DNA of 64,000 bases from NCBI GenBank assembly GCA_965225985.1, contig OZ245330.1:3098019-3162018 (forward strand), read 5' to 3'. A program made the position numbers and the translations under genes. Below, in pieces: positions 1 to 39,822 of this stretch. Position 1 is the first letter of the stretch; the number at the start of each line of letters is the position of its first letter. The notes under the pieces were generated by a model, which was not told where the DNA came from, did no database searches, and worked only from the letters and a program-made list of their open reading frames with translations. Origin of the DNA: a bacterium (GTDB taxonomy: Bacteria; UBA8248).

Positions 1-506
1 ATCCCAGCATCTGCCCCTACCGGGAGTTCGCCTGCTCGGACGGGGAGATCATCGTCGCCGCCGCGAACGACAGCCTGTGGGAGCGCTTCGCCCGCGCCAT
101 CGGGCGGGCGGACCTCGCCGGCGATCCGCGCTGGAGGCGGAACGCGGACCGCGTCGCGGGCCGGGACGCGCTGGAGGCCGAGTTGCGGAAAACGCTATCG
201 GCCAAGACCCGGGCCGAATGGCTGCGGGCCATCTCGGAAGGGGGGGTGCCCTGCGGGCCGGTGCGGGACATCGGGGAGTTGGCGAACGACCCTCAGATCG
301 CGCACCGCGGCATGGTGGTCGAGATGGCGCACCCGACGGTCGGCGCCCTCAAGGTGATGGGGGTTCCGGTCAAACTCTCCGCCACCCCCGGGTCCGCCGC
401 CGCCCCGCCGCCCCTCCTGGGGGAGCACACCGAAGAGGTGCTCTCGTCCCTTTTGGGCAAGACGAAGGAGGAAATCGGAAATCTGCGGGAGAAAGGGGTG
501 GTTTGA
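1..506 (+). CDS. CoA-transferase family III (CaiB/BaiF-type), 3' part; 5' end lies outside the window
   Basis: Frame-3 translation from the window start (...ANDSLWERFARAIGRADLAGDPRW...) runs continuously into ORF 183..506 (...GPVRDIGELANDPQ...HRGMVVEMAHP...). These are family-III CoA-transferase hallmarks. Confidence 0.75.
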   Translation, partial: PSICPYREFACSDGEIIVAAANDSLWERFARAIGRADLAGDPRWRRNADRVAGRDALEAELRKTLSAKTRAEWLRAISEGGVPCGPVRDIGELANDPQIAHRGMVVEMAHPTVGALKVMGVPVKLSATPGSAAAPPPLLGEHTEEVLSSLLGKTKEEIGNLREKGVV

Positions 507-557
507 GGGCCGGGCGGAACGCGGCGCCCTTGCGGTACGGCGGACCTGCGGATAGGA

Positions 558-1607
558 TTGCGGGCACCTGGAACAGAAGTTTCCCCCTTTCGCGGGAGGC
601 GAGCCCTGAGAGTCATCACCTATTCGGTGAACTTCACGTTGCCGATCACAAATTGGTGCGTGAACCGTTGCGCTTACTGCCATTTCCGGAGCGACGCGCC
701 TCTCCTACTCTCCCTGGAGGAGTGCGGCCGGATCGGGCGTGAGGCGTACGAAAAAGGGGCGATCGAAGCGCTGGTCATGACCGGGGAGGGGATCGACCAT
801 CATCCCGCCCTGCGCCGCCAGCTCGCCCAGTGGGGCTTCGATTCCTACGCCGCCTACACGGCGGAGGTGTGCCGCCTTTGCCTCGAAATCGGTCTTCTTC
901 CCCACACCAATATCGGCACCCTGGAGGAGTGGGAGTACGAGCTCCTCAAGCCCTACAACGTGAGCATGGGCATGATGGCCGAGACGGTGAGCCCGGAGGC
1001 CACCCGCATCGCGCACCGGGCGGCGCCCACCAAAACGCCCGAGCGCAGGCTCGCCTCGGTCGAGGCGGCGGGGAAGCTCGGCATCGCCTTCACCACGGGC
1101 ATCCTGATCGGGATCGGGGAGCGGCCCGAGGAGCGCGTCGCGGGCCTGGAGGCCATCGCCGGGATACACAGCCGCTACGGCCACATCCAGGAGATCATCA
1201 TTCAGCCCCTGAACCCGCAGGAAGAGACGCCGATGGCGCGTTGGGCGCGCCCTTCGGACGGCGAGGTGGCCGAGCTCATCGCGGAGGCGCACCGGCTCAT
1301 GCCCGGCGTGCACGTCCAGATTCCGCCGAACCTGGTGGACGACCTTCCCCGCCTGTTGCGGGCGGGGGCGGACGACATCGGGGGGATTGCGCCCGAGCCG
1401 GATCACATCAACCCCAACCGCCCCTGGCCGGAGCTGGAGGAGCTGGAGGCAGCGATCCGCGGCGACGGAATGACCCTCCGTCTCCGAATGCCCATTTATG
1501 ACGAGTTCATCGCGGCGAGCTGGTGTCCCGATCCCGCGCGCCCCGCCCTGGAGCGGATGCTGGCGCGCCGGGAGGAGGCCGCCTCCGCCGCCGTGGAGGT
1601 CCCATGA
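558..1607 (+). CDS. cofG: FO synthase subunit 1 (7,8-didemethyl-8-hydroxy-5-deazariboflavin synthase CofG), radical SAM
   Basis: 349 aa. Carries the CxxxCxxC motif 'CVNRCAYC'. Typical CofG blocks are present (GEGIDHHP, IGTLEEWE, FTTGILIGIGE). Confidence 0.88.
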   Translation: MRAPGTEVSPFRGRRALRVITYSVNFTLPITNWCVNRCAYCHFRSDAPLLLSLEECGRIGREAYEKGAIEALVMTGEGIDHHPALRRQLAQWGFDSYAAYTAEVCRLCLEIGLLPHTNIGTLEEWEYELLKPYNVSMGMMAETVSPEATRIAHRAAPTKTPERRLASVEAAGKLGIAFTTGILIGIGERPEERVAGLEAIAGIHSRYGHIQEIIIQPLNPQEETPMARWARPSDGEVAELIAEAHRLMPGVHVQIPPNLVDDLPRLLRAGADDIGGIAPEPDHINPNRPWPELEELEAAIRGDGMTLRLRMPIYDEFIAASWCPDPARPALERMLARREEAASAAVEVP

Positions 1608-2839
1608 GCAAACCGGCGAGCGCCGAGATTCTGAACGCCTTCGAAGCGGGGGAAGCGATTTCGCGCTCCGCCGCCGCAGCCCTGCTGGAGGAAACCTCCC
1701 CCGAGGCGATCGAGCGGCTGAACGCCGCCGCCGACGCCGAGCGGAAGCGCACCGCCGGCGACGAGGTGAGTTACGTCATCAACGCGAACGTGAACTTCAC
1801 CAACGTCTGCTACACCGACTGCAAGTACTGCGGCTTTTGGCGCCGCCCGAACGCCCCGGACGCCTACACCCACGGCGACGACGTCCTCCGCGCCAAGTTC
1901 GAGCGCGCGCGGGGCTTCGGCGTGGGCGAGATCTGCATGCAGGGCGGGCTCAACCCCGCCATCTCTCTCGACCGCTACGAGGAGGTGCTGCGCCTGGCCC
2001 GGGAGGTCATCCCCGGGGTCCACATGCACGCCTACTCGCCGGCGGAGATCGATCATATTCAGCGCAAGACGCGCCTGCCGCTCGAAACCATCCTGCGCAG
2101 GCTGAAAGACGCGGGGCTGGGCTCCATCCCCGGGACGGCGGCGGAGATCCTCGTCGAGCACGTGAAAAAACTCATCAGCCCGGGGCGGATTCCGGTCGAG
2201 CGCTGGTGCGAGATCATCAAGACCGCCCACGCGGTGGGAATCCCGACCACCTCGACCGTGATGTACGGCCACATCGAATCCGCCGGGGACCTGGCCGAAC
2301 ACATGGATATCATCCGCAGCATCCAAGCCGAGTCCGACCGGGGGGGCGGGGCGCGCTTCACCGAATTCGTCCCCCTCCCGTTCATCCCGTACGACAACAA
2401 AATGGGGGAGGAATTCGGCATCCGGAAGATGGCTGGGCTGGATTACATCTTCCGCCTCCATGCCGTTGCTCGGTTGTTCTTCCGCGGCGCGATAACGAAT
2501 CTTCAGGTGGCCTGGCCCAAAATCGGAATCGAGGCGGCGAAGCGGGCGCTCTCGTTCGGGGTGAACGACCTGGGCGGCACCCTCATCGAGGAGAACATCA
2601 GCCGGGGCTCGGGTTCGGAATACGGCCAGAGCCTGACGGTCTCGCAGTTCAACGAGGCCATCCGCGCGGCCGGGCGCGTCCCCGTCCAGCGCACCACCAC
2701 CTACGACATCATCCGTGAGAGCGACCCCCGCTACCGCCACCCCCGCTCCGAGGATGAAGCCTATCTCGGCGAGGGGAACTACGGCGGCCGGAAAAAGTCT
2801 CCCTCCCTTCCCATGGCGAATGCCGCCGACCCCCCCTAG
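1604..2839 (+). CDS. cofH: FO synthase subunit 2 (CofH), radical SAM
   Basis: ATG at 1604 overlaps the cofG stop (ATGA). Radical-SAM motif 'CYTDCKYC'. CofH-like blocks are present (GLNPAISLDRYEEVLRLARE, VMYGHIESAGD). Confidence 0.88.
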   Translation: MSKPASAEILNAFEAGEAISRSAAAALLEETSPEAIERLNAAADAERKRTAGDEVSYVINANVNFTNVCYTDCKYCGFWRRPNAPDAYTHGDDVLRAKFERARGFGVGEICMQGGLNPAISLDRYEEVLRLAREVIPGVHMHAYSPAEIDHIQRKTRLPLETILRRLKDAGLGSIPGTAAEILVEHVKKLISPGRIPVERWCEIIKTAHAVGIPTTSTVMYGHIESAGDLAEHMDIIRSIQAESDRGGGARFTEFVPLPFIPYDNKMGEEFGIRKMAGLDYIFRLHAVARLFFRGAITNLQVAWPKIGIEAAKRALSFGVNDLGGTLIEENISRGSGSEYGQSLTVSQFNEAIRAAGRVPVQRTTTYDIIRESDPRYRHPRSEDEAYLGEGNYGGRKKSPSLPMANAADPP

Positions 2840-2878
2840 GCACCGCCGCACACCCACTCTTAAGCGAGGCTCCACGAT

Positions 2879-4324
2879 TTGCCTGAACTGCATCACAACT
2901 CATTCAAGGACATGATGAACGACGTGGTGGAAGCGGGAAGCTGCTGCGAGTGCGGCAGCTGCGTTCTCGTTTGCCCCCACAACGTAATCGAATACGTCGA
3001 CGCGAAGCCGAAGCAGACGGCCAAGGCGAGCGCGGCGTTCGACTACTGCGGAATCAGCGAGGGGATCGGCTGCGATGTGTGCGCTTCGGTGTGCCCGCGC
3101 CTCTGGCCCCGCGAGATCCATCTGCGCGACGCGGCCTTCGGCGACCGGGGAACGCTCTACGAGGGCATCTTCGGCGCCTACCGACGGATTTTCATGGCGC
3201 GCACCAAGCGCGAGGACGTAATGGAGCGCGCCCAGGACGGCGGGATCGTGACCGCCCTCCTCGCCTGGGCCCTCGCGGCGGGCGAGATCGACGGCGCGGT
3301 GGTCTCGGCGGTGGGCGAGGACGACCCGCCGTGCGATCCCAGCCCCAAGGTGATCACCACCTACGAGGAAATCGTGGCCAGCGCGGGAAGCTGGTACACC
3401 TACTGCGAAAACAACATGGCCCTGCGGGAGGTCAAGGAGCGCGACCTGAAAAAGGTCGCCTTCGTGGGGGTCCCCTGCCAGATCACCCCGCTCCGCAAGA
3501 TGGAGCTCATCGACCCGGCCTTTCTCCTCTCCGCCAAGAAAAGGCCCCAAATCATTCAAAAGCAGCGGGGCTTCCTGCGCGGCTTCTCCGACCGGGTGGC
3601 CTTCAACATCGGGCTTTTCTGCACCGAAGTCTTCACCTTCGATCTGATGACGGAAAAGATCGAAAAGGAGTTGGGCATACCCCTCACCGAGGTATCGAAG
3701 TTCAACGTCAAAGGAGAGGTGCTCGTTTACAAGAAAGACGGCGAGCTCGTCACCTTTCCCCTCCAGGAGGCGATGGAGAATTACCAGCGGCCCGAATGCC
3801 AGCACTGCGCGGACTTCTCGGCCGAACTCTCCGACATCGCCTGCGGCGGGGTCGGCACCCGGGGCTGGACCATCGTCGTCCTGCGCACCGAGAAGGGAGA
3901 GCGCGTCTGGCGCGCCTTCGAGGAAGAGGGGCTGATCGAAACCAAACCCATGCAGGAGAACCGGCGGGCCTGGAACATTCTCCAAATCCTCTCCCGCAGG
4001 CAGCGGAACCGCGTCCCCGAGGGGGGCGTGCGGAGCGGAACCGCGCCGGGGCTTCCCCCGTATTCTGTCCCGGGCGACGCCGAGTTCGCCGCCGCGCGGA
4101 TGCAGGAGAGCGGCAAGAGCGAGGAAGAGCTCACCGCCGCCCTCGACGCCGCCTACGAGAGCGAGGAGCGGCCGGCCGGGGTCAGGGGATACATGGCCGG
4201 CCAGCCCATCCCCGGCGATCCGGGAGATCCCCCGCCCGGCGAGAAACGGAAGCATCCCCCGCCGCCCACCCCCGACCAAGGCGGGGCGCCGCCCGGGTGG
4301 AAAGCGGACGAGAGCGCAGCGTGA
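2879..4324 (+). CDS. FrhB/FdhB-family F420-binding flavoprotein with an N-terminal 2x[4Fe-4S] ferredoxin domain and a C-terminal Pro/Gly-rich disordered tail
   Basis: Two Cys clusters 'CECGSCVLVCP' and 'CDVCASVCP', followed by FrhB_FdhB N- and C-like regions (GGIVTALLAWAL..., VGVPCQI..., CQHCADFSAELSDIACGG). The last roughly 120 aa are low complexity. Confidence 0.75.
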   Translation: MPELHHNSFKDMMNDVVEAGSCCECGSCVLVCPHNVIEYVDAKPKQTAKASAAFDYCGISEGIGCDVCASVCPRLWPREIHLRDAAFGDRGTLYEGIFGAYRRIFMARTKREDVMERAQDGGIVTALLAWALAAGEIDGAVVSAVGEDDPPCDPSPKVITTYEEIVASAGSWYTYCENNMALREVKERDLKKVAFVGVPCQITPLRKMELIDPAFLLSAKKRPQIIQKQRGFLRGFSDRVAFNIGLFCTEVFTFDLMTEKIEKELGIPLTEVSKFNVKGEVLVYKKDGELVTFPLQEAMENYQRPECQHCADFSAELSDIACGGVGTRGWTIVVLRTEKGERVWRAFEEEGLIETKPMQENRRAWNILQILSRRQRNRVPEGGVRSGTAPGLPPYSVPGDAEFAAARMQESGKSEEELTAALDAAYESEERPAGVRGYMAGQPIPGDPGDPPPGEKRKHPPPPTPDQGGAPPGWKADESAA

Positions 4325-4950
4325 GGGAAGTGAAGGCCCCCGCTTCCCTCAACGCCGTCTCGCTCGGGGAGGCGCTCATCCGCCGGCGGTCGATCCGGAA
4401 TTTCTCGCCCGGGCCCGTGGACCCGGAACGCATCCGAATCGCCATCGAGGCCGCCTGCCTCGCCCCCAGCCCGCACGGGACCGAGCCCTGGCGCTTCTGC
4501 CTTCTCGAATCGCCCGAGGCGAAAAAGAAGCTGGCAGAGGAGATGGGCCGCGATTTTCTCCGGGACATGGAGAGCGAGGGGGTCCCCGGGGAGGAGCGAG
4601 CCCGCCGCCACGCCGGAAGCCTTCGCCTCCTGACCGGGGCCCCCGTACTCCTTCTCGCCGCGCTCTCCCTCTCCGGCCTCGACGCCTACGAAGACCCCGG
4701 GCGCCAGGCGCACGAGTATATGATGGCCGAGCACAGCCTGGGGGCGGCGCTCCAAAACCTCATGCTCGCCCTCGCCGCCCAGGGCGTGGGGACCGTCTGG
4801 CGCTGCGCCCCCCTCTTTTGCCCCGAGACGGCGCGCGCCGCCCTGGACCTGCCCGGGGACTGGATTCCCCGGGCGCTCATTCTCGCGGGGTATCCCGAGG
4901 CCGCCCCGCCGCCGAAGACGCCCCCCGCCCCGCAAATCCTCGTCCGATGA
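4321..4950 (+). CDS. Nitroreductase-family flavoprotein, similar to the FbiB C-terminal domain (putative dehydro-F420-0 reductase)
   Basis: GTG at 4321 overlaps the upstream stop (GTGA). Nitroreductase-fold blocks (RRSIRNFSPGPV, GTEPWRF, AEHSLGAALQNLMLALAAQGVGTVW). It sits inside the F420 operon. Confidence 0.72.
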   Translation: MREVKAPASLNAVSLGEALIRRRSIRNFSPGPVDPERIRIAIEAACLAPSPHGTEPWRFCLLESPEAKKKLAEEMGRDFLRDMESEGVPGEERARRHAGSLRLLTGAPVLLLAALSLSGLDAYEDPGRQAHEYMMAEHSLGAALQNLMLALAAQGVGTVWRCAPLFCPETARAALDLPGDWIPRALILAGYPEAAPPPKTPPAPQILVR

Positions 4951-5888
4951 AGGGGCCCGTCCTTGCCCTCGCCGGGGGGGTCGGAGGCGCCAAGCTCGCG
5001 GTGGGCCTCGCGGCCGCGCTTCCGCCGGGGGCGCTCACCGTCGTCGTCAATACCGCGGACGATCTGTCCCTTCACGGCCTCCACATCAGCCCCGACCTCG
5101 ACACCGTGATGTACAACCTGGCCGGGGTGGCCGACCCGGAACAGGGATGGGGGATCGCCGGGGATACCACCACCGCCCTCGAATTGCTCGGCCGGCTCGG
5201 CGGGCCCACCTGGTTCCGGCTGGGGGATCAGGACCTCGCCACCCACGTCCGGCGCACCCAGCGCCTCGCCGAAGGCGCCCGCCTCACCGAGGTGACGGCC
5301 GAGCTTTGCGCGGCGCTCGGCATCCGCTCCCGCGTCCTTCCGATGACGGACAGCCCCGTGGCGACGCGCGTGAACACGCCCGAGGGCGAATTGGAGTTCC
5401 AGGACTATTTTGTCGCCCGAAGCACCCGGCCCCGGGTGACGGGCGTGCGCTTCCAAGGCGCGGAACGATCCCGGATGACGCCGGAGGCGGAAGAAGCCCT
5501 CAAGGAGGCGCGCGCTATCGTGTTCTGCCCTTCCAATCCGATCGTGAGCGTGGGACCCATCCTCGCCGTCCCCGGATTTCTCGAAAAATTCATGCAGAAC
5601 GACGCTCCCCGGATCGCGGTGAGTCCCATCGTGGGGGGAGCCGCTCTTCGCGGGCCCGCGGCCGAAATGCTCGAGGGCATGGGGCACGAGGCGACCGCGC
5701 TCGGGGTGGCGAGGATTTACCAAGAATTCCTGGACGGGTTCGTCCTCGACGAAGAAGACGCCGAACTCCTGCCGGAAATCGAAAAGCTGGGCCTGGCGGC
5801 ACGGGCGCTTCCCACCATCATGACCGATTTGGAGTCAAAAAAACGCCTCGCCGGGGAAATTCTCCGCTTCGCCGGCGGCCTTCGGTAA
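4947..5888 (+). CDS. cofD: 2-phospho-L-lactate transferase CofD
   Basis: ATG at 4947 overlaps the upstream stop (ATGA). CofD/UPF0052 blocks (LALAGGVGGAKL, VVNTADD, FCPSNPIVSVGPIL). Confidence 0.88.
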   Translation: MKGPVLALAGGVGGAKLAVGLAAALPPGALTVVVNTADDLSLHGLHISPDLDTVMYNLAGVADPEQGWGIAGDTTTALELLGRLGGPTWFRLGDQDLATHVRRTQRLAEGARLTEVTAELCAALGIRSRVLPMTDSPVATRVNTPEGELEFQDYFVARSTRPRVTGVRFQGAERSRMTPEAEEALKEARAIVFCPSNPIVSVGPILAVPGFLEKFMQNDAPRIAVSPIVGGAALRGPAAEMLEGMGHEATALGVARIYQEFLDGFVLDEEDAELLPEIEKLGLAARALPTIMTDLESKKRLAGEILRFAGGLR

Positions 5889-5963
5889 GACCCTTTCCGG
5901 CAGCCGTGATAAGATGGGCCTGCACACGTAACCATTCCATTAAATGGTCGCGGGGCATTTCGG

Positions 5964-6617
5964 ATGGCCACATCGGGAGAATGCATCGCTCTGGTGCCGG
6001 AGCGGGGGTTCCGCTCCGGAAAGTCCCGCCTCTCGCCCGTCCTCACGCCCGAGGAGCGGGACGAGCTCGGGCGCTGGATGCTGGGCCGCGTGCTCATCGC
6101 CCTCCGGGAATCAGATTCGGTCGGGCGGGTCGCCGTCCTCAGCGAGGACGATGAGGTGCTCGCCTTCGCGGGCGAGAACGGCGCCGCGGGCATTCGCTGC
6201 GAGGGCGCCGAGATGAACGCCGACCTGGAGAAAGGCCGCGCCTGGTCCCTTTCGAAAGGCGCCAGCGCCCTCCTCGTCATTCCGGGCGACCTCCCTGCCC
6301 TCCGGGCAATCGAAGTGGATTCGCTGATTGACCTCGGGAAAAAAACAAACGGGGAGAAAGGTTGCGTCGTCCTCACGCCCGCATTGGATGGGGGGACAAA
6401 CGGAATCTATCTGCGCCCCGCCGGCGCGCTCTCCTTCTCCTTCGGGCCCGGAAGTTTCAAGCGCCACTCCGCTGCGGCAAAGGCGGCGGGCCTGGAGGTG
6501 TCGCGTTTTGAAAGCCTGGGCCTGTGTCTGGACGTGGACCGCCCCTCGGACATTGTCGCCTTCCTGCGTTCCGGGGTACCGGCCCCCGAGTGGCTGGCGG
6601 AAATCCCGCTGCCATGA
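5964..6617 (+). CDS. cofC: 2-phospho-L-lactate/PEP guanylyltransferase CofC
   Basis: 217 aa. CofC-like N-terminus (IALVPERGFRSGKSRL) and GTP:adenosylcobinamide-phosphate guanylyltransferase-like fold features. Lies between cofD and cofE. Confidence 0.8.
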   Translation: MATSGECIALVPERGFRSGKSRLSPVLTPEERDELGRWMLGRVLIALRESDSVGRVAVLSEDDEVLAFAGENGAAGIRCEGAEMNADLEKGRAWSLSKGASALLVIPGDLPALRAIEVDSLIDLGKKTNGEKGCVVLTPALDGGTNGIYLRPAGALSFSFGPGSFKRHSAAAKAAGLEVSRFESLGLCLDVDRPSDIVAFLRSGVPAPEWLAEIPLP

Positions 6618-7375
6618 ATCCGGTTCAAATTCTTCCCATCAACGACCTCCCGGAAATCCGGGAAGGGGACGACCTTCCCCGCCTCCTCCTGGACGCGATG
6701 CGGGAAAGCGGCATCCGCTTCAAAGAAGGGGATATCCTCGTTCTGGCCCAAAAGATCGTGAGCAAGGCCGAGGGCCGCTTCGTCCGCCTGTCCGGGGTAT
6801 CGCCTTCGCCGGACGCCATTCGGATCGCCGAGCGGGACGGCCGCGACGCGCGCATGGTGGAGGTGGTCCTGCGCGAGTCGAACGAGGTGGTGGCGGCCTC
6901 GGAGCGCGCCCTCATCGCCGAGCACCGATCGGGCGCCGTTTGCGCCCACGCGGGGGTGGACCGATCCAACCTGACGGGAGACGCGGATCTCGTGCTGCTT
7001 CTCCCGGCTGACTCCGACGCCTCGGCAAGAAAGATCCGCGAAGCCCTCAACCGCCTTGCGGGGGCCGGCCCCGCCGTCATCATCGCCGATACCCAGGGGC
7101 GCGCCTTCCGAAGCGGGGTGGTCGGGGTGGCGATCGGCTGCGCGGGGGTGGAGCCGGTTGCGGACCTCCGCGGCACAAAGGATCGGGCCGGGCGGCCGCT
7201 CGAGATCACCCAGGTGGCCCAGGCGGACGAGCTGGCCGCCGCCGGGAGCCTGGCCATGGGGCAGGCGGCCGAAGGCGTGCCGGCCGTCATCGTCCGCGGG
7301 TTCGGCTACCGGCCCGGGGAAGAGCCGGCCACCCGCCTCTTCCGCAAAAAGGCGGAAGACCTCTTCCGCCGATAA
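6614..7375 (+). CDS. cofE: Coenzyme F420-0:L-glutamate ligase CofE
   Basis: ATG at 6614 overlaps the cofC stop (ATGA). CofE blocks (GDILVLAQKIVSKAEGR, HAGVDRSN, IADTQGRAFR). There is no fused nitroreductase domain. Confidence 0.88.
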   Translation: MNPVQILPINDLPEIREGDDLPRLLLDAMRESGIRFKEGDILVLAQKIVSKAEGRFVRLSGVSPSPDAIRIAERDGRDARMVEVVLRESNEVVAASERALIAEHRSGAVCAHAGVDRSNLTGDADLVLLLPADSDASARKIREALNRLAGAGPAVIIADTQGRAFRSGVVGVAIGCAGVEPVADLRGTKDRAGRPLEITQVAQADELAAAGSLAMGQAAEGVPAVIVRGFGYRPGEEPATRLFRKKAEDLFRR

Positions 7376-7440
7376 TCTCCGGGAGGGCTCCGCCTTCGGG
7401 CAGCCGGGGCTTTCCCCAAAATTCATGAGGAAAATGAAAC

Positions 7441-7761
7441 ATGCCGCTTTTTCGCTGGAGTGAAATCGAGGAGAAACAACTCAACGCGCTGGTCCGCGGC
7501 CGGATCGTGAAAACCGATAATGTGATGGCCTGCCGGATCACCGCGCCGCGGGGGGAGATATCCACCCACGAGCATGACTTCGACCAGATCACGCATATCA
7601 TCAGCGGAAAATTGAATTTCCGCCTCGGAGACGGAAACCAACGGATCGTTCAGGCGGGAGACGTCATGGTTTTGCCGGCGGGAACTCCGCACGGGGGCGA
7701 GGTGCTCGAGGAGGCGGAATACATCGATATCTTCTCTCCCCCCAATCCGGACTTCGCCTGA
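7441..7761 (+). CDS. Cupin-domain protein
   Basis: 106 aa. Cupin motifs around 'THEHDFDQITHIISGKL' and 'GDVMVLPAGTPHG'. Confidence 0.65.
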   Translation: MPLFRWSEIEEKQLNALVRGRIVKTDNVMACRITAPRGEISTHEHDFDQITHIISGKLNFRLGDGNQRIVQAGDVMVLPAGTPHGGEVLEEAEYIDIFSPPNPDFA

Positions 7762-8491
7762 GGCGAAGAAGCACCCGGGAAGCCATTCCCCCCGCCGGAA
7801 AAAGAGATCTGTTGAAAATTCACGTTCACCGGTGAATGACCCATTTACCGCGTCCCGTGGGATGAACCATACGGTTTGCAGGGTTCCGGCTTTTTTTGCA
7901 TAATTTACGCGGAGCGGTGAAAAAGGGACGCGGGATCGACCTGTACGCAGCAAGCCCGAACAGACGGCAAAAAGGATTTCTCCATGGCGGAAAGCGAACA
8001 TTCTTCCCATGTTGGGGAGGAGGAGCGAAACGAGGAATCGGGCGCATATGGGCCCTCCGGGGACGGCGACGCGGCCACTTCACCGGCGGCCGGGCTGATC
8101 ACGCTCGGATCGAAGACCGCCTTGCTCTCGCGCCCGATGCCCTGCCCCTACCTCGGCTCAAGCGAGGGCAGGGAGCACCCCTTCGACACGCCCTCCCGGA
8201 GAAACGGCTGCTACGCCCAAAAGGGGAAGAAAAAGGGGGGGCCGGCGCCCGGGGGCCGCCTCGTACAGCCGCATTCCGCGTGAAAAGCAAGAAAGCCATT
8301 GCTTGAGCCATTTCGCCCAATGCGAGCTGTACCAAAAAAAGCTTCAAGAGGAACCCGAAGATGCCGCGGGCGGGGCTGGGTCCCGCTCCAACTCGGATTC
8401 ACCGGCTTCCGATGCGAAGAGCAAACAGAGAGATAAGACGCATCGGTCCGGAACAAGAAAGAGAAAGTAATCGCGGAAAAGATCCTTTCCC

Positions 8492-8836
8492 ATGTTCGCG
8501 GGCCGCCGGTGGAGAAAGTTCTTTCAGGTCGGCCTCCTCACCTCGTTTTGCTTCGTTTCGGCGCTCGCCCTTTACATCATCATCGCGCTCGAGCCTTCAA
8601 GCTGGCTCATGTTCGTCTTTGAAACCCGAATCCGACAGCGGCTCCAATCGCTCGGCCTGAGACAACCGGGCATTGCGGGTAAGACCCAACCCGGAGGAAT
8701 CCCCGGCGGCGGCCTCCGGTCGTTGAAAGGTATGTCCGCGGCCCAAAAGAAAAAACTGAAGAGCAAGGGAATTCCCAAAGGGATGTCCCGGGCGCAATTG
8801 GAAAAACTCAAAAAACAATTTAAGGGAAGAAGATAA
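8492..8836 (+). CDS. Hypothetical small membrane protein with a Lys-rich tail
   Basis: ORF with one TM segment (LLTSFCFVSALALYIIIAL) and a basic C-terminus. GC is somewhat lower here. Confidence 0.35.
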   Translation: MFAGRRWRKFFQVGLLTSFCFVSALALYIIIALEPSSWLMFVFETRIRQRLQSLGLRQPGIAGKTQPGGIPGGGLRSLKGMSAAQKKKLKSKGIPKGMSRAQLEKLKKQFKGRR

Positions 8837-8980
8837 GCGTCCCGATCCGCGCATCCCGGAAATCCAGGAAGAAGAATCCATTTTTGTCCGGGCTGCGCCT
8901 TTCCCCGGGCAAGATAACCACCGGCTTCTGGGCGGCCGAAGAGCCGGCCGCAATGCCCCCTCGATCCGAAGAAGGTTCTG

Positions 8981-9763
8981 ATGAGAAAAATATTTTCCCC
9001 GGTTCAGTTCGATTTCCGGGCCCGGAACGTTGGGCCGCCTGAAAGGAAAACCCTTTTCCCGGCGAAAACGGCGCGCCTCAAAATACGGAACCGGCTGGCG
9101 GTACTGGCCGTCCTTTTATCCGCATCGTGGGCAACGCCCGCCCTCCCCCAGGCTGAGAAGAAATCACCGCCGCCCGGGGCGCCGACAGCGGACCGGCCCA
9201 CGCTGGCAAAGGGCGATTGCTGGCGATACCGGAACCTGAACGTCCGGAAGGGCCCGAGCGAATCGGTTCGATGCGTCGTTAAGGTGCTAAACGACGGCTA
9301 CGTCATGCGGACAAAAGGCCGCGTCGAGGGACTCGCCCGTTACGATCGCAACCTGGTTTGGCTCGGCTCGATCGGCCAAAACAGGGTCATCCGCCAGCCG
9401 GGGCGGAGCCGGCCCCCGCTCCGGCTGAATTTTCCCCTCTGGGTGGGAAAAAGCTGGTCTGACAGTTACCGGGTGCTGGATGAAACGCTCACCGGCTTCC
9501 ACCATTTTGCGAATCTCTACGTCGTCGAAGCCGTGGAGACCATCCGCATTTCATCCCAGGATATCCTGACTTTCCGAATCCGGTGGATCAGAAAAAGCGT
9601 GGCGAGCGGCGAGTCGGCCGAGGGCCACACCTGGTACGCGCCCGCGGTCCGGAACGTGGTGCGGATACAAAATAATTGGCCGGGCGGAACGAACCTCATT
9701 CTGACCGGGTTCAAACCCTCATCCAACCCTCCCCAGACAACAGGGCGCCGAAAATCGAAATAG
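8981..9763 (+). CDS. Hypothetical secreted protein
   Basis: 260-aa ORF with a signal-peptide-like segment (RLAVLAVLLSASWATPALPQA). I see no recognisable family. Confidence 0.5.
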   Translation: MRKIFSPVQFDFRARNVGPPERKTLFPAKTARLKIRNRLAVLAVLLSASWATPALPQAEKKSPPPGAPTADRPTLAKGDCWRYRNLNVRKGPSESVRCVVKVLNDGYVMRTKGRVEGLARYDRNLVWLGSIGQNRVIRQPGRSRPPLRLNFPLWVGKSWSDSYRVLDETLTGFHHFANLYVVEAVETIRISSQDILTFRIRWIRKSVASGESAEGHTWYAPAVRNVVRIQNNWPGGTNLILTGFKPSSNPPQTTGRRKSK

Positions 9764-23488: not shown

Positions 23489-23514
23489 GGCGGGATCTCC
23501 TTTTTCCATGACTG

Positions 23515-24651
23515 CTAGGTGAACTGGATCTGGATCTCGTCGTCCCCGGTGTTCCGCGCCATCGAGAAGGGGACCTCGTAGGTGAGGAGGCCGTCCCGGT
23601 CCCCGAGGCCGATGTCGCCGTACTGGCACTTGGGGGCGGTGACGGTGCAGATGTTCCCCGCCGCCTGGCCCACCTGGACGCTGAGGGCGAGCTGGTTCTG
23701 CGCCTCCCACTTGGCCCAGACGTCCTCGGTGGCCTTGAGGACGGCCTCGGGGTCGAACGAGCCCGCCGGGGCGCGGCCGGTGACGAGGGAGTTGATGTGC
23801 CCCCCGGTCTGGTTCGCGCTCCGGCGCAGGGCGACGGTGTTGTTCATCGAGAAGGTGATGGACGCCGCGTCGAAGTTGAACCCGCCGAAGGAGAAGGCCG
23901 CCACCAGGGCGGGCTCGGGAAGCTGGGCGTCGTAGGCGCTCCCGGCGACCAGGGAGGCGTCCGAGACCCGGAAGTCCGCCGCGGTGAACTCCCAGTCCAC
24001 CGTCGGGACGGCGTCGAGGGGGACGTTGAGGGTGAAGGTGCCCATGCAGCCCATGTAGAGGACGCGCAGGCCGTCGATGAAGGCCGTGACGGCGCAGCGG
24101 GTGAAGCTCGACTTGTCCGAGATGGGGGCGTAGGTGACCGAGGTGCCGCCCACGACGGTCTCGCTCATCCCGCACGCCTTGAAGAGGATGCCGTAGTCCG
24201 GCGCGGTGCCCGCCGCGCCCGAGCCGCGCAGCTCGGCGGTGAAGGAGATCCGCGCCGAGCGTCTTCCCGCGACGAAGGGGAAGGGCGAGAGGCTGTCGTC
24301 CCGCACCGCCCGCTCGAGGCGCTCGACCTCGAGGTCGTGCGAAAAATTCCCCGCCCGGAAGAGTTCCGCCGCCGGGGCGGGCCGCTCGAGGAGGTAGACC
24401 GTGGTCGAGTCGGGCACCGGGCTCAGGGTGCCCACCGTCAGGGTGTCGCTCGCCGCGTCGAAGTCGGTGACCGAGACCTACTGGCCCACCCCGACGCCCC
24501 GGATGGTGCGAAGGGTCGAGCCGTTCCAGAAATCGTCCGCCTCGGTGCGCGCCGCGTCCACGACGGTGGTGGCGGTGGCGCTGTCCATCGTTCCTTCCAA
24601 CTCCTCGGTCGCGCCGATGATCTGGCGCTCCATCAACAGGGTATCGCCCAT
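23515..24651 (-). pseudogene. Phage major tail (tube)-like protein interrupted by an in-frame TAG at 24478-24480
   Basis: MGDTLLMERQIIGATEEL...TIRGVGVGQ[TAG]VSVTDFDAASDTLTVGTLSPVP... continues in the same frame for another 306 codons. Confidence 0.5.
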
Positions 24652-24716
24652 CTCTTTGCCTCTCCCTTTCTTTTAGGAAAAATGCTCTCGTCCTTTGAAT
24701 GCGGCTCTCCCCGGCC

Positions 24717-25236
24717 TCACGCCCGGGTGATCCGCTCGAAGGCCTGGAGGCGGATCTCGGCGTAATGGCAGAGAACCCCCCCGAAGGCCCGCGGTTCGAT
24801 GACGTCCACCTGGGGCGGCTGAAGGCGCTCCAGGGTGGGGACCTTGCTTCGGAGCCGGAGGGCGTCGTTCGATCGGAAGCGGTCGCAGACCGCCTCGATG
24901 AGGTCCTGGAAGACGAGCTCGCTCGCCGCGCCGTCCTTCAGCCCCATGATCCCGGCGAGGAGGAAGGTGTGGGCCCGCCGGTTCACCCCCGCGGGGATGA
25001 GTCCGCCCGGGGCGCTCGCGCCGAATCCGCCGAGCGCCTCGCTCACCCGCTCGCGCGTGACGATCCAGCCGCGAATTTGATCCCCTCCGTCCGGCGCCTC
25101 CCAGCGGAACAGGCCGATGTACTTCGCCATGTCGGCGGCGGTCCGCTGGTAGAGGTGCACCCTTCCGGCGTTTTCCACCGCCTCGATTTCGGCGGCGACC
25201 GCCGCGCCGATATCCTTGTAGAATGAGCTAGCCACG
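24717..25236 (-). CDS. Phage head-tail joining / neck-region hypothetical protein
   Basis: GTG start overlaps the upstream stop (GTGGCTAG). 173 aa, VASSFYKDIGAAVAAEIEAV.... Confidence 0.45.
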
Positions 25237-25743
25237 CAGCCTCCCCGCGATGTCGGCGCCGAGCCTTTCCACCCGGCGCGCAATGGGCCCCATGCTTTTT
25301 TCGAGGGCGTCCCGGAACATGTGCCGGCCCGCGGTGCCCCTCCGCCCGATGGCGCGCGCGATGAGGAAGGCCGCCGAGCGGGCCTCCCCGCCGCTGACCC
25401 CCAGCACCCGCTCCACCCAGCCGTAGAGGGAGGAGCCGGGCCCCGAGGGGGGCCGCCGGCCCGGGCCGCGCCCCTCCTCGACGGGAAGGGCGTAGGCGAG
25501 CGGGGTGGCGACGGTGCCGCGAAGCGAATCGAGCGCGCTCCCGCGCACCTCGGATACGATCGAGCCCCGAAGCGCGCCCGTCGCCCCCCGGGGGGTACCG
25601 GCGGCGGCGCGTGCATGAATCATCTCCACGATGTCTCCCACGGCCCGCGCGGCCTCCTCGAAAACGACGCCCGCGGGATCGGCCCCATCGCCCGCGAGGG
25701 GGCCGGCCCGCTCAAAGGTGAGACTCCAATCTCCTTTCGCCAT
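25228..25743 (-). CDS. Phage hypothetical protein (head-tail connector region)
   Basis: 172 aa starting MAKGDWSLTFERAG.... It is the C-terminal segment of the long spurious ORF 25228..27276. Confidence 0.45.
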   Translation of the reverse strand: MAKGDWSLTFERAGPLAGDGADPAGVVFEEAARAVGDIVEMIHARAAAGTPRGATGALRGSIVSEVRGSALDSLRGTVATPLAYALPVEEGRGPGRRPPSGPGSSLYGWVERVLGVSGGEARSAAFLIARAIGRRGTAGRHMFRDALEKSMGPIARRVERLGADIAGRLRG

Positions 25744-25757
25744 TCCAGCCTCCCGCG

Positions 25758-26480
25758 CTAGCGCTCCCCGGGGCCGCCGTGGGTCAGGTACCGGCCCCGC
25801 CGCTGGGAGAGCGCCTCGTCCCAGTCGAGGGAGTGGCCCGCCGGGCCCGCCGTATCCCCCTCGCGCTGGCCGATGTGGGCCTGGTACTTGCGCTCGAGCT
25901 CCTTGGCGAGCCGGGTGTACTCGGACGCCTTGCTCGGGTAGCTCACCGCGTCCGCCCCGATGAGGGGCTCGGCGCTCTGGGCGAACCGCCGGGCGAGGAT
26001 GTGGCACCCTTCCGCCGCGGCGAGCCAGGCCGCCGCGATCAGGTCGTTCGCCGGGATGCTCGTTGCGGCGTCGTCCGCGGTGTGCGGCGCCGCGTAGAAG
26101 AGCCGCGCCGTCTCCCCGGTGCCGGGGGTGAGCCGCAGGAGGCGAAGCTTCGCCGCCGAGGTCGCCGCCCCGTAGATCGTCCAGTCCCGCCGCTGCAGGT
26201 AGACAGGCTCGCGCTCCCCCTGGGGGTACTCGACCGCGAGCACCGTCGAGAGGGCCGCGTCCCAATCCGCGGGCAGGCTGAAGTCGTACGCCGCACCGTC
26301 GCCGGCGTAGTCCTGAAAAGCCTTCCGCGGCCGGTCCTTGCTGTAGCGGGCGAGGGCCGCACGGACGAGGTCCGCGAAATCCGCCTCGGCCAGTGCGACC
26401 TCGGGCGGGATCTCGCCCGACTTCAAAAAGACCTTCACGTCCGCGATGATGGTTTGTCGTGATGACACTGCGTTCTCCAC
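25758..26480 (-). CDS. Phage hypothetical protein
   Basis: Clean 240-aa ORF (MENAVSSRQTIIADVKVFLKSG...). Confidence 0.55.
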   Translation of the reverse strand: MENAVSSRQTIIADVKVFLKSGEIPPEVALAEADFADLVRAALARYSKDRPRKAFQDYAGDGAAYDFSLPADWDAALSTVLAVEYPQGEREPVYLQRRDWTIYGAATSAAKLRLLRLTPGTGETARLFYAAPHTADDAATSIPANDLIAAAWLAAAEGCHILARRFAQSAEPLIGADAVSYPSKASEYTRLAKELERKYQAHIGQREGDTAGPAGHSLDWDEALSQRRGRYLTHGGPGER

Positions 26481-26513
26481 GGGACTGGGGCGGGGTAAAT
26501 TCCCCGCCCGCCC

Positions 26514-26808
26514 CTAGGTTTTGACCGCCAGCTTCGCCTCGAAAGTGAACGAGGGGCTCGACCCTCCGATGTCCCACGAGAGACGGAACCACTTCCCGAG
26601 GTTCGTCAGCTTGACGAGGGTCTTGCCCGTACCCGTGATTTGCGCCGGCTCGGTGTGGATGTAGCCGAGCGCGTCGTCCGCCGGCCCGGCTTCGATATCG
26701 AAATCGAGGGTGGGTGAACCGCCCGACGTCGAAGGGCGTGCTCTCGCCGTCCGCCGTCCGGGCCGCTGAGGCGGCCAATGTGATCGTCTTGGTCCTTCTG
26801 TCCGCCAT
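26514..26808 (-). CDS. Phage small structural protein, apparently frameshifted
   Basis: MADRRTKTITLAASAARTADGESTPFDV... shifts near 26735-26745 into ...PTLDFDIEAGPADDALGYIHTEPAQITGTGKTLVKLTNLGKWFRLSWDIGGSSPSFTFEAKLAVKT*. Confidence 0.4.
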
Positions 26809-26818
26809 GATCGGGCTC

Positions 26819-27099
26819 CTAGAAATCGAGGTAGAGCTTCGCGCCGGCCCCTGTGAGGACCGCGTGGAGCCCCACGCCGAAGCGGATGCCGCCCGGCGCC
26901 AGGTCCAGGCTCTTGGACACTCTCCGGCGGGCGCGTTGACGGCCCGCAGCACGGTGCCGGAGGCCGCCGTGTTGTCGTACAGCGTGACAGTGGCCGCCGC
27001 GCCGGAGCCCGCCGTGAGAATTCCGCCCATGAGCTTTCCGTTCCCCGTCGTCGCGGTGCCGGTGGCGGTAACCTCTGTCGTTTCGACTGGATGGATCAT
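26819..27099 (-). CDS. Phage small structural protein, apparently frameshifted
   Basis: MIHPVETTEVTATGTATTGNGKLMGGILTAGSGAAATVTLYDNTAASGTVLRAVNAPAGE... shifts near 26925-26935 into ...VSKSLDLAPGGIRFGVGLHAVLTGAGAKLYLDF*. Confidence 0.4.
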
Positions 27100-27145
27100 C
27101 GTGTACCTCCCTTTCCCGTTCTGGGCCGTCCCGGGCCGCCGCGGG

Positions 27146-27571
27146 CTAGTTGGGCGAGAATTCCACCGTGACCGCGAAGGGGGGCAGCGCCATTCCACTT
27201 CCCACCTGCTCGACCTGGAGTCCGAGCTGGTTTCCGGTGGAAACCGAGAGGGGGCTGGCCGGGCTGTAGAGGTCATAGCCCGCGACTCCGATGTCGTTTC
27301 CGCTCGTCAGGTCATAGTTCGCAAGCTCGGCCGCGCCGGCGCCGTTCGTCCCGCGGTCGATGAGATTCAGGTTCTTGGTGTTCGTGTTCTGGCCGGTGAC
27401 GGCCGCGCCGGGCACCACCCGAACCTTCTCGATCTTGCAATTCACCGGGGCTTCGAAAATCACGTAGGTGGTGCTGGCGTCCGCGGCGGCGGCGGCGGCG
27501 GCGGCGGCGGCCGGGGAGACGACCGTCTTGTCGTGGGTTCCCGGGACGTCGCAAGCCTGTCTGTTGCTCAT
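27146..27571 (-). CDS. Phage head-associated hypothetical protein (decoration-like)
   Basis: 141-aa ORF with an Ala-run and beta-rich composition. Preceded by a CCCCAAAAATCACAGATTTTGAGG element. Confidence 0.45.
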   Translation of the reverse strand: MSNRQACDVPGTHDKTVVSPAAAAAAAAAADASTTYVIFEAPVNCKIEKVRVVPGAAVTGQNTNTKNLNLIDRGTNGAGAAELANYDLTSGNDIGVAGYDLYSPASPLSVSTGNQLGLQVEQVGSGMALPPFAVTVEFSPN

Positions 27572-27696
27572 TTTTTTCTCCTTTCTCTAAACGGGTCGAA
27601 AAGAGACCCTTTCGCAGGGACGAGGGCCACCCCAAAAATCACAGATTTTGAGGACCCGGGGCACGCCTCGCCCCTGCGAGTTCAATTGACAATCGG

Positions 27697-29805: not shown

Positions 29806-30092
29806 TCCCCGGCCGGGGCCTTTGTTGGCCCCCGTTGCTGCGGGGAACAGGGGGGAGCGCGCCAAGCGCTTTCTTCCGGCTCTGAGAAATCGGTTCAACA
29901 CGGGTTTCTCTCCTCTCTTTCCTTTTGCTTCTCTCCCATCAGGGCGTTCGGGCGCCGCGACGGGTTCCCATTTCCCGGATCTTCCGGCCCGCCGCGGAAG
30001 GCCCTTTCGACCGACTCCCGCGGGGAGGGAAAAACCCGTGCGGCCGGCCACCCCGGCCGCGCGAGGAGGAATCTAAATGAAAAAGGGACTGG

Positions 30093-30114
30093 GCCAACTA
30101 CCGGAAATTCGGGG
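30093..30114 (+). repeat. Dispersed-repeat core copy (GCCAACTACCGGAAATTCGGGG)
   Basis: Exact core, 40 nt upstream of the capsid gene on the minus strand. Confidence 0.7.
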
Positions 30115-30334
30115 AATTTCGCGCCAGGAAAAAATCCGCACTGTGGGGGGGGAATCCTTTGTTCCGGGGAGAAAAAAGTTCTGGTTGGCATGAGAATGGG
30201 GTTTTCAGATATTTCCCGTTCGGGTTCAGAACCCGCGATCCCGGATTCGGGAGCAACAATCCCATTTTGAGACACGCCCCCGAGGAAATCCGCTTGACGT
30301 TTCCCCCACCCCACCTAATATATTCAATGTCGCG

Positions 30335-31297: not shown

Positions 31298-31315
31298 GCC
31301 GCCGGCCCGCGCCGC

Positions 31316-36440: not shown

Positions 36441-36688
36441 GGGGGGGAATTTTTGGCCCTGAGCAAGGCCTGCGACTACCTTGTTTCGAATGAAGTGGCG
36501 GAGGAATTCTCCGCTTCTTTTTCTTTTTTTCTCGGTTCGCTTCTGGCGCAATTCCTGGACGCGTTGGTCTCGACTTGCCCTCCCTGGTTGCTGCTTCTCC
36601 TCTTTCTTGACCCTCGAATTCGCAACGCTTAGACTTTGCGGGATTTTCCTTACATTTTTGAGGAACCTGAAGGCCGGAGGACCGCTCA

Positions 36689-39600: not shown

Positions 39601-39822
39601 AAGGCAGAAGACCACTATCGTCAGGCCCATCCTTTGGCCGAGGACCTGGGGATGCGCCCCCTGCTGGCGCTCTGCCTCCTCAGCTCAGGCTCCCATTACC
39701 GCCGGGTGGAGCGGGCGGAGCAGGCCCGGGCCGAACTGTGCGCAGCGGTCGAGCTCTTCCGCTCCATGGGGATGTCTCACTGGCTGCCCCGGGCGGAAGC
39801 GGAGCTCGCCGAGGCGGGATGA
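36689..39822 (+). CDS. Double zinc-ribbon / class III adenylate-guanylate cyclase / STAND (AAA_16) ATPase / TPR protein
   Basis: Two CxxC...CxxC ribbons at the N-terminus. Cyclase catalytic-domain blocks (VTVLFADLKGSMEL, GDGIMALFGAP). Walker A 'AEAGVGKSRL'. C-terminal TPR-like repeats. Confidence 0.82.

Follow-up and report, generated by a model that had tools for sequence, protein, structure and literature searches.

Near the left end of the 64,000-nucleotide window analysed here (contig OZ245330.1 of a Nitrospinota bacterium, positions 3,098,019 to 3,162,018 of the forward strand), seven co-directional genes at 558–7375 form a conserved operon for synthesis of the cofactor F420, and embedded within it is a gene for a FrhB-like iron–sulfur flavoprotein that we here call FrhBL. 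The operon itself, as well as its stand-alone nitroreductase (NTR), is of a known and ordinary kind. New is FrhBL, which represents a free-standing form of the F420-reductase module known from FrhB and is found in bacteria as well as archaea, with a clade-specific insertion, a conserved Pro-rich tail in the family of the window protein, and a location inside F420 gene clusters. What was observed directly, and is presented below, are the identities of the genes, their motifs for cofactor binding, their conservation and their neighbourhoods. From these we propose, with a probability of about 0.5, that FrhBL would be a stand-alone ferredoxin:F420 oxidoreductase resembling FpoF, whose gene would be co-inherited and co-expressed with those of the cofactor pathway. 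It would act as the cell's 'charger' for F420 by exchanging electrons between F420/F420H2 and a one-electron carrier, for instance ferredoxin, and it would be linked to the biosynthetic genes for that reason and not for the NTR step.

Recognition of F420 beyond methanogens and actinobacteria is growing, and Nitrospinae have already been listed among the carriers of F420 genes (PMC8498797). Of two gaps, one concerns the means by which Gram-negative bacteria and other recently recognised producers keep F420 in its reduced form. The other concerns organisms lacking an FbiB fusion, where either something must provide the electrons for reduction of dehydro-F420-0 or another reaction must take its place, and for which an enzyme 'CofX' has been postulated. 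The FrhBL family, found from Bathyarchaeia to Nitrospinota and Proteobacteria, offers a concrete, cloneable, highly conserved and readily recognised candidate for either role.

A seven-gene F420 operon conserved in Nitrospinota

Open reading frames (ORFs) and profile searches bore out the gene order and extents given in a preliminary description of the window, i.e. cofG, cofH, frhBL, NTR, cofD, cofC and cofE, all on the plus strand (Table 1). The 4-nt start/stop overlaps that it reported at four junctions are likewise present in the sequence (ATGA at 1604, GTGA at 4321, ATGA at 4947 and ATGA at 6614), with the remaining two junctions being gaps of 39 nt (cofH/frhBL) and 75 nt (cofD/cofC).

Scanning one genome per GTDB species gave 238 FrhBL relatives, of which the best 80 loci were analysed with 10-kb flanks (loci are cited by L numbers). 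The same genes in the same order were found in nearly all of approximately 35 Nitrospinota and Tectomicrobia loci, as far as their contigs reach, with FrhBL being 69–91% and the other operon proteins 32–95% identical to those of the window; the nearest genome is an uncultured Nitrospinaceae metagenome-assembled genome (MAG) with a 91% identical FrhBL. Junctions were scored in 28 complete seven-gene loci of other genomes, leaving out the window's own contig (L086) and taking the candidate start nearest each junction, and the tight spacing recurred throughout. The 4-nt overlap of NTR and cofD was seen in 28/28 loci and those of cofG/cofH and cofC/cofE in 24/28 each, the other four cofG/cofH cases being scoring artefacts, and the frhBL/NTR junction was either a 4-nt overlap or a gap of 1–15 nt in all but two loci, where the genes overlap by 28 nt. 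This conservation is clearly beyond chance, and shared ancestry accounts for part of it, because genes farther upstream are also syntenic.

The 3′ end of a gene for a family III CoA-transferase lies at 183–506 (+) in the window, 51 nt upstream of cofG, and in about 30 Nitrospinota loci (L004–L036, approximately 2.4 kb 5′ of frhBL) a copy of this gene immediately precedes cofG. It was considered as a part of the system and rejected; since genes still farther upstream are equally conserved, its position probably reflects lineage synteny. A 31%-identical CoA-transferase together with a near-threshold TIGR03619-like luciferase-like monooxygenase (LLM) of F420-dependent type was also seen 4–5 kb 5′ of frhBL in five gammaproteobacterial loci.

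With regards to translation starts, a public gene call on an ENA metagenome contig 100% identical to the window begins cofG at GTG 627 (326 aa), which drops about eight N-terminal residues aligned by the CofG profile, the match of which starts at residue 16 of the ORF opening at 558. Because GTG 627 removes these profile-aligned residues, 558 is probably the better start and the public call too short; 558 is also the sole start codon found 5′ of the conserved N-terminus. The TTG start of FrhBL is kept in most orthologous loci. For NTR there is a second candidate GTG 9 nt downstream (4330), so that the GTGA overlap with frhBL is likely but not certain, with the spacing being at most 6 nt using either start. 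A promoter and terminator scan of 1–9000 gave no promoter-like sites on the plus strand inside the operon and one plus-strand terminator-like match, which falls inside frhBL and within chance expectation; the scan is uninformative on the operon boundaries. A small cupin-domain gene at 7441–7761 (+), 66 nt past the cofE stop, may share the operon transcript.

That the operon encodes a complete F420 pathway in tightly coupled genes, as had been stated earlier, was upheld, with all five Cof proteins exceeding their NCBIfam/TIGRFAM equivalog cut-offs. CofG scored 361 bits with NF004884 (cut-off 209) and 324 bits with TIGR03550, CofD 324.3 bits with TIGR01819 (cut-off 257.45), CofC 134.9 bits with TIGR03552 (cut-off 105) and CofE 277.4 bits with TIGR01916 (cut-off 180.65) and 246.6 bits with PF01996. 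CofH scored 387.6 bits with TIGR03551 (cut-off 374.1) and also matched PF19288 (CofH_C), with its score for NF005609 being just below the cut-off (405.1 vs 426). Both CofG and CofH have Pfam matches to PF04055, with the radical-SAM CxxxCxxC motif being CVNRCAYC in CofG and CYTDCKYC in CofH. Split cofG and cofH genes together with a single-domain cofE are found also in archaea and some bacteria. At a diagnostic position of CofC (G163 in Mycobacterium tuberculosis FbiD, S162 in the Mycetohabitans enzyme), Gly indicates use of phosphoenolpyruvate (PEP) or 2-phospholactate (2-PL) and Ser or Thr that of 3-phosphoglycerate (3-PG) (PMC8764529). The window CofC has Gly at this position, within ...SFSFGPGSF..., and is by this residue predicted to be of the PEP/2-PL type, not the 3-PG type.

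The NTR had been proposed to be of the FbiB C-domain type, and this assignment was supported. It matches PF00881 with 95.7 bits, has the M. tuberculosis FbiB C-domain as its best match in the PDB (4XOM, 111 bits, E 4.5e-31, vs 63 bits for the next nitroreductase) and gives FbiB models as its top NCBIfam matches, while staying below the cut-off of TIGR03553 (FbiB_CTERM, annotated as the FbiB C-terminal domain; 149.7 vs 249.55). Three residues have been proposed to lie around the enolpyruvyl group in M. tuberculosis FbiB, i.e. Pro289, Met372 and Arg337 (PMC6450877). The window NTR shares the nitroreductase fold of the FbiB C-domain structures (4XOM, 4XOO and 4XOQ) and the equivalents of Pro289 and Met372 are conserved, whereas the Nitrospinota NTR clade has Gly in the Arg337 column, beside a gap and with Arg residues three to four positions upstream. 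Thermomicrobium has a stand-alone dehydro-F420-0 reductase that has been characterised (Braga et al. 2020, cited in PMC8764529), and a review gives stand-alone FbiB-C-type enzymes the name FbiE and attributes them to several lineages of bacteria and archaea (PMC8498797). The window NTR, likewise encoded on its own next to cofD and cofC as in Thermomicrobium and as predicted for other lineages, is FbiE-type and hence a known kind of enzyme, differing in that a frhB-like gene precedes it. By family membership, CofG and CofH would make the deazaflavin FO, to which CofC and CofD would attach an enolpyruvyl (or lactyl) phosphate to yield dehydro-F420-0, with NTR reducing this compound to F420-0 using FMNH2 and CofE adding the glutamate tail. 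The most economical reading of the operon is such a PEP route, in which dehydro-F420-0 would be reduced by a free-standing FbiB-C homologue.

The notion that this arrangement had not been described before held only in part, as stand-alone FbiB-C-type reductases were already known (FbiE; PMC8498797, PMC8764529), while a link with FrhB was not found in the literature searched. The F420 clusters of Gram-negative bacteria and Chloroflexi compiled earlier (Ney 2017; Braga 2019, 2020) have the same pathway genes, but the accessory genes listed for them are Fgd, Fno, FDOR, LLHT and Mer, with no FrhB-like gene (PMC8498797, Fig. 10), and the word 'FrhB' occurs 0 times in that review. No relevant paper emerged when FrhB was combined with F420 biosynthesis, cofE/cofD or dehydro-F420-0 in full-text searches, the cluster maps of Ney 2017 and Braga 2020 being outside the search.

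The frhB-like protein and its C-terminal extension

FrhBL had been described as an FrhB/FdhB-family protein with a two-cluster ferredoxin domain, and both features were found again. PF04422 and PF04432 scored well above gathering thresholds (78.8 bits vs 22 and 127.8 bits vs 23.3, respectively), and the N-terminal Fer4 dicluster contains the Cys motifs CECGSCVLVCP and CDVCASVCP. In the family alignment C22/C23/C25/C28/C32 and C57/C65/C68/C72 are invariant, and in structure 8RIU the zeta subunit has a two-cluster ferredoxin domain to which this part of FrhBL can be aligned. Also invariant in the family are a QDGGIVT motif and Cys200, Cys248, Cys307 and Cys310, which align with both FrhB and the 8RIU zeta subunit; by homology, the four Cys residues are putative cluster ligands. 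These features indicate that FrhBL would carry FAD, an adjacent [4Fe-4S] cluster and the two-cluster ferredoxin domain as an outward electron wire.

The best PDB match of FrhBL is FrhB, the beta subunit of F420-reducing [NiFe] hydrogenase (3ZFS/4OMF; 3ZFS_C, 157 bits, aa 97–393), with which it shares the QDGGIVT motif and the four Cys residues, followed by 8RIU_B (152 bits), 8RJA_E (149 bits) and the N-terminal half of the F420-dependent sulfite reductase Fsr (137 bits). However, FrhB lacks a ferredoxin domain and a tail, and FrhBL stays under the FrhB equivalog cut-off (TIGR03289, 200.8 vs 331.5). No hydrogenase genes (FrhA/FrhG) were found in the annotated FrhBL neighbourhoods. Another known protein, the F420H2 dehydrogenase input subunit FpoF, has an N-terminal ferredoxin domain and works alone as a ferredoxin:F420 oxidoreductase in Methanosarcina. 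FrhBL is below the cut-offs of the FpoF/FqoF models (NF040616, 119.7 vs 475; NF006808, 120.7 vs 444) and no Fpo genes are present in the annotated neighbourhoods, nor are there genes for a Fpo/Nuo-like membrane complex within 10 kb of the window frhBL, with docking to a complex encoded elsewhere being possible. HCAR and BciB, ferredoxin-dependent chlorophyll reductases, belong to the same superfamily of proteins with FAD and Fe-S clusters and show that substrates other than deazaflavins, a vinyl group among them, can be reduced by this fold, but they are not close relatives, with only 34 bits between FrhBL and HCAR (5DQR). Closer in architecture are the carbon monoxide dehydrogenase (CODH) zeta subunit (8RIU_B) and the formylmethanofuran dehydrogenase subunit FwdI (8RJA_E) of Ca. 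Ethanoperedens thermophilum, with their ferredoxin domain, FAD/[4Fe-4S] domain and C-terminal extension (PMC11493965). Residues 8–375 of FrhBL align with these CODH/Fwd F420-reductase subunits, whose F420-reducing activity has been measured (PMC11493965). The Ethanoperedens subunits are, however, parts of large archaeal catabolic complexes, whereas the window FrhBL is bacterial, has no such partner genes nearby, contains a 24-aa insertion and a different and longer Pro-rich tail, and is encoded in a biosynthetic operon.

More than 860 FrhBL homologues were found, with the top 120 having 65–100% identity at 89–100% query coverage, and FrhBL forms one tight family of 65–91% identity in Nitrospinota, Tectomicrobia, Planctomycetota and Proteobacteria. 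Ten longer, distant relatives have extra domains that are almost only of Fe-S type (in addition to one HTH_IclR and one PSD3 match), with no fusions to cof, NTR or radical-SAM domains among them.

The tail past the FrhB fold, which had been given as 120 aa and called unusual, is 102 aa long (aa 380–481; 19% P, 15% G and 15% A) and, being conserved across phyla, is no oddity of this one protein. In Nitrospinota, Tectomicrobia, Betaproteobacteria and Gammaproteobacteria, full-length homologues with the tail are 65–91% identical over nearly the whole protein and have the tail motif GYMAGQPIPGDPGxPPPGEKRKxPPPPxPxQGGAPPGW in common, before which two helices are predicted. An AlphaFold2 model from a 14-sequence alignment was used for the rough secondary structure of the tail only, having a mean predicted local distance difference test (pLDDT) score of 56 and an unmodelled ferredoxin domain. 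In a search of 1.84 billion cluster representatives at 50% identity, the tail-bearing proteins collapsed into essentially one full-length cluster; the next relatives are 41–48% identical, 376–413 aa long and end at approximately residue 380, and the tail was absent from every FrhBL relative below about 50% identity. No Pfam family matches the tail. These comparisons show the tail to be a conserved feature that marks a single tight group of orthologues and is not a product of drift; this Pro-rich tail is probably a docking element for a partner protein. The 24-aa insertion (aa ~213–236, between the PCQ and LFCTE motifs) has a wider distribution, being common to four of the five nearest tail-less relatives (three cof-linked), and is absent from FrhB and the Ethanoperedens subunits.

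Table 1. Coordinates of the operon genes, FrhBL regions and prophage-like genes in the window
Feature	Position	Strand	Remarks
cofG, FO synthase radical-SAM subunit	558–1607	+	TTG start, 349 aa
cofH, FO synthase radical-SAM subunit	1604–2839	+	ATG overlapping cofG stop (ATGA), 411 aa
frhBL, frhB-like Fe-S flavoprotein	2879–4324	+	TTG start, 481 aa
FrhBL N-terminal ferredoxin domain, aa 17–74	2927–3100	+	Eight Cys, predicted two [4Fe-4S] clusters; Fer4 matches
FrhBL F420-reductase module	3191–3958	+	FrhB_FdhB_N aa 105–182, FrhB_FdhB_C aa 191–360
FrhBL conserved C-terminal extension, aa 380–481	4016–4321	+	Two predicted helices, then Pro-rich motif
NTR, stand-alone FbiB-C-type (FbiE-type) nitroreductase	4321–4950	+	GTG start overlapping FrhBL stop, 209 aa
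cofD, 2-phospho-L-lactate/enolpyruvyl transferase	4947–5888	+	ATGA overlap, 313 aa
cofC, guanylyltransferase	5964–6617	+	75-nt gap upstream, 217 aa
cofE, F420-0:gamma-glutamyl ligase, single-domain	6614–7375	+	ATGA overlap, 253 aa
Minor tail protein	23515–24435	-	phrog_290
Capsid-protease fusion	27697–30051	-	Phage_capsid_4, E 2e-42
Portal protein	31316–32707	-	phrog_10963, E 3e-45

Gene neighbourhoods of frhBL and the possible role of its product

Neighbourhoods were read within flanks of 7–10 kb and, as the preliminary description had led us to expect, the FrhBL clade adjoins cof genes in many lineages. In Spongiibacter pelagi the order is cofC-fbiC-frhBL, and in Sterolibacterium (L002) frhBL is divergent from cofE-cofD-cofC::fbiC, with no nitroreductase and with the CofC part having Gly (PEP/2-PL) at the diagnostic position. 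The Sterolibacterium MAG encodes at 4982–7978 (−) of L002 a 998-aa triple fusion of CofC, CofG and CofH (CofC::FbiC), operonic with cofD and a single-domain cofE. Two further proteobacterial loci have cofC-fbiC approximately 8 kb from frhBL, and about 40 proteobacterial loci have no cof gene and no NTR within 10 kb. Around 19 of these cof-less loci have an F420-dependent LLM of TIGR03617 (378 bits vs 278) within approximately 7 kb, 13 of them within 3 kb, and one marine clade has a PPOX-class F420 enzyme directly 5′ of frhBL (119.5 vs 84.9). In a Planctomycetota MAG, an archaeal-type F420-dependent methylene-tetrahydromethanopterin (methylene-H4MPT) dehydrogenase (Mtd; L029, 804–1667, +; NF002162, 353 vs 297) is encoded about 480 nt 5′ of frhBL, this being an unusual enzyme for Planctomycetota. 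Pfam searches of other frhBL neighbours gave heterogeneous and uninformative genes.

Two local associations were also seen. In eight to nine marine gammaproteobacterial loci (including L042, 11545–11877, and L044, 11571–11906), frhBL is directly followed, in the same orientation, by a gene for a high-potential iron–sulfur protein (HiPIP) with a twin-arginine translocation (Tat) signal, after which comes a TIGR03617 F420-dependent LLM gene in convergent orientation; as a general FrhBL partner the HiPIP was rejected, the Tat signal making it periplasmic and the gene being confined to one clade. A small predicted lipoprotein (lipobox ...ACG) is encoded convergent to frhBL on the minus strand in L035 (11469–11843), L040 (11473–11805), L051, L055 and L060, having a conserved C-terminal motif VVYDPI(D/N)TSKLxxxWWEQYNK and no Pfam match. 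NCBIfam gave 'SoxX-like' matches among the neighbours, and five of the small convergent ORFs inspected were small predicted lipoproteins without a haem motif.

Tail-less relatives gave further arrangements: cofG-cofH-LLM-CMD-frhBL in L090, cofD..cofE-cofG-cofH-frhBL in L091, with the frhBL start abutting the cofH stop, and an LLM and cofE within 3.5 kb in L092, with a tail-less copy in Caldiarchaeum having no F420 genes nearby. A metagenome scan seeded with tail-less relatives yielded 80 loci with 34–55% identity to the window FrhBL. A cof or NTR gene is present in 37 of these in the DNA at hand and is the immediate frhBL neighbour in 28 (cofE in 16, NTR in 6, cofD in 4 and cofH in 2), with cof genes found in 16 of the 25 loci having at least 2.5 kb on both sides. 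Bathyarchaeia make up the largest group, in the order cofE(−) frhBL(+) NTR(−) cofD(+), with FrhBL and NTR each being approximately 35% identical to those of the window. L094 and L095 (6989–13140, +, in the latter) have a six-gene operon, frhBL-cofD-cofC-cofE-cofG-cofH, with a tail-less FrhBL of 53–55% identity (55% in L095), a Gly-type CofC and no nitroreductase/FbiE, and in L171 and L173 cofG-cofH is followed by frhBL, again with no nitroreductase. Conversely, NTR homologues of 42–50% identity are found in cofD-cofC-NTR operons of other lineages with no FrhBL nearby (L087 and L089). There are hence three cluster types, having FrhBL together with FbiE (Nitrospinota and Bathyarchaeia), FrhBL alone (L094/L095, L091, L171/L173 and Sterolibacterium) or FbiE alone (L087 and L089).

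We favour a general F420-linked role of FrhBL because it predicts all three cluster types without extra assumptions, as the only one of four readings compared, and it also predicts the proteobacterial loci in which the neighbours are F420-consuming enzymes. Room for an F420-reducing enzyme in these bacteria is suggested by a review finding none studied in Gram-negative or newly recognised producers, with only Fno being recognisable in Tectomicrobia and Betaproteobacteria (PMC8498797). The substrate of FrhBL, the direction of its electron flow and its partner we infer from homology and gene context, and several points weigh against a general F420 reductase. What we know of the clade comes from its sequences and gene neighbourhoods. 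No conserved ferredoxin or other partner gene adjoins frhBL in the neighbourhoods surveyed, so that any electron donor or acceptor named here is conjectural. The commonest immediate neighbours in the wider clade are the biosynthetic genes counted above, which would also fit a direct biosynthetic role. Identities of 65–70% between phyla, including the tail, point to constraints, such as several partners, for which a simple soluble oxidoreductase would not obviously account, and the F420 pocket is not assessable in the AlphaFold2 model at its mean pLDDT of 56. Furthermore, the FrhB-family members HCAR and BciB do not use F420.

The preliminary description had suggested a dedicated electron-delivery module for the dehydro-F420-0 reduction step. 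In this reading FrhBL would use electrons from ferredoxin (or F420H2) to regenerate the FMNH2 of FbiE, either directly or through F420H2. Apart from two Nitrospinota loci, the two genes overlap or are separated by no more than 15 nt in that group, the pair is adjacent also in Bathyarchaeia in spite of only approximately 35% identity of the proteins to those of the window, and NTR is the immediate neighbour in 6 of the 80 tail-less-seeded loci; moreover, the physiological reductant of the FbiB-C/FbiE flavin has not been established, with an added flavin reductase being needed in vitro (PMC6450877). The distribution speaks against such a module. A strictly FbiE-specific donor would predict no clusters having FrhBL alone, but FrhBL occurs also in NTR-less cof operons (complete in L094/L095; also L091, L171/L173 and Sterolibacterium) and in the approximately 40 cof-less proteobacterial loci, and there are cofD-cofC-NTR operons in which an FbiE-type gene has no FrhBL in its vicinity. 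As fbiABCD also suffices for F420 production in E. coli, the FbiB reductase works without a partner of this kind (PMC6450877), and we find a strictly NTR-specific helper unlikely.

An alternative dehydro-F420-0 reductase, also suggested earlier, is a possible role for FrhBL, which would then itself be CofX and move ferredoxin electrons to the enolpyruvyl C=C bond, being redundant with FbiE or acting on another intermediate. The FrhB-family protein BciB reduces a vinyl C=C bond with ferredoxin. FrhBL is the sole redox enzyme in one complete and several partial cof operons that have a Gly-type CofC or none (L094/L095, with Sterolibacterium being similar), cofE, which in FbiB is fused to the reductase, is its commonest immediate neighbour (16 of 80 loci), and a CofX reductase for organisms lacking the FbiB fusion has been postulated by Bashiri et al. 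However, a simple FbiE substitute predicts that clusters with both FrhBL and FbiE should not exist, and such clusters, with a bona fide FbiE-type gene and hence redundancy, are found in Nitrospinota and Bathyarchaeia. FrhBL is also far closer in sequence to F420-reductase modules (150–157 bits) than to HCAR (34 bits), in Proteobacteria the majority of copies lie at a distance from cof genes and beside F420-using enzymes, and 2-PL may be the true substrate in NTR-less organisms, where no reductase would then be needed. We therefore regard this role as improbable. To much the same small degree we credit a reading where FrhBL would re-reduce the radical-SAM [4Fe-4S] clusters of CofG and CofH through its ferredoxin domain. 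These enzymes require a low-potential one-electron donor, for which the Fe-S wiring of FrhBL is fitting, and frhBL is found directly 3′ of cofH or fbiC in Nitrospinota, Spongiibacter, L091 and L171/L173 and two genes farther in L090, but it is not near cofG/cofH in the largest groups (Bathyarchaeia and most Proteobacteria), an F420-binding module would be superfluous for such a job and no radical-SAM fusions were seen among the 10 longer relatives. General flavodoxin/ferredoxin systems serve radical-SAM enzymes elsewhere.

Adjacency without any F420 meaning, with FrhBL acting on an unrelated substrate like HCAR and BciB do, would agree with its scores below the NCBIfam cut-offs for FrhB and FpoF and with the heterogeneous neighbourhoods of many proteobacterial loci. 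This we dismiss as highly improbable because at least six independent arrangements in both domains of life, from Bathyarchaeia to Proteobacteria, tie the clade to F420 synthesis or F420 enzymes, which is far beyond chance. The coincidental adjacency of a Fpo/Fqo/Fsr-type subunit, raised in the preliminary description, was not borne out; the nearest relatives are not such subunits with unrelated neighbourhoods.

Biosynthetic readings nonetheless stay alive because biosynthetic genes are the commonest neighbours, the reductant of the FbiE flavin is not established and CofX has been postulated. In a broader form, FrhBL would be a ferredoxin-dependent redox input of F420 biosynthesis that helps to form the lactyl side chain, feeding FbiE (e.g. 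by F420H2 or FMNH2) where present and serving as 'CofX' where a PEP/2-PL-type CofC occurs without FbiE, as in L094/L095, Sterolibacterium and many archaea, which we consider a tentative option of rather low likelihood. For a biosynthetic role the L094/L095 operon offers the clearest test. Nor need the readings be separate, for if the FbiE flavin were reduced by F420H2, a general F420 reductase would also supply the last reductive step. Should FrhBL indeed prove to exchange electrons between ferredoxin and F420, it would also be of use in engineering heterologous hosts for F420-dependent biocatalysis.

Other features of the window

A prophage-like block on the minus strand at approximately 23500–32700 contains the three phage genes listed in Table 1 together with several large ORFs lacking a family match, and the ORFs flanking it, from approximately 14000 to 35500, gave no phage-specific matches. 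Farther downstream, at 36481–39822 (+), the window encodes a 1113-aa signalling protein with zinc ribbons, an adenylate/guanylate cyclase domain, an AAA ATPase domain and TPR repeats.

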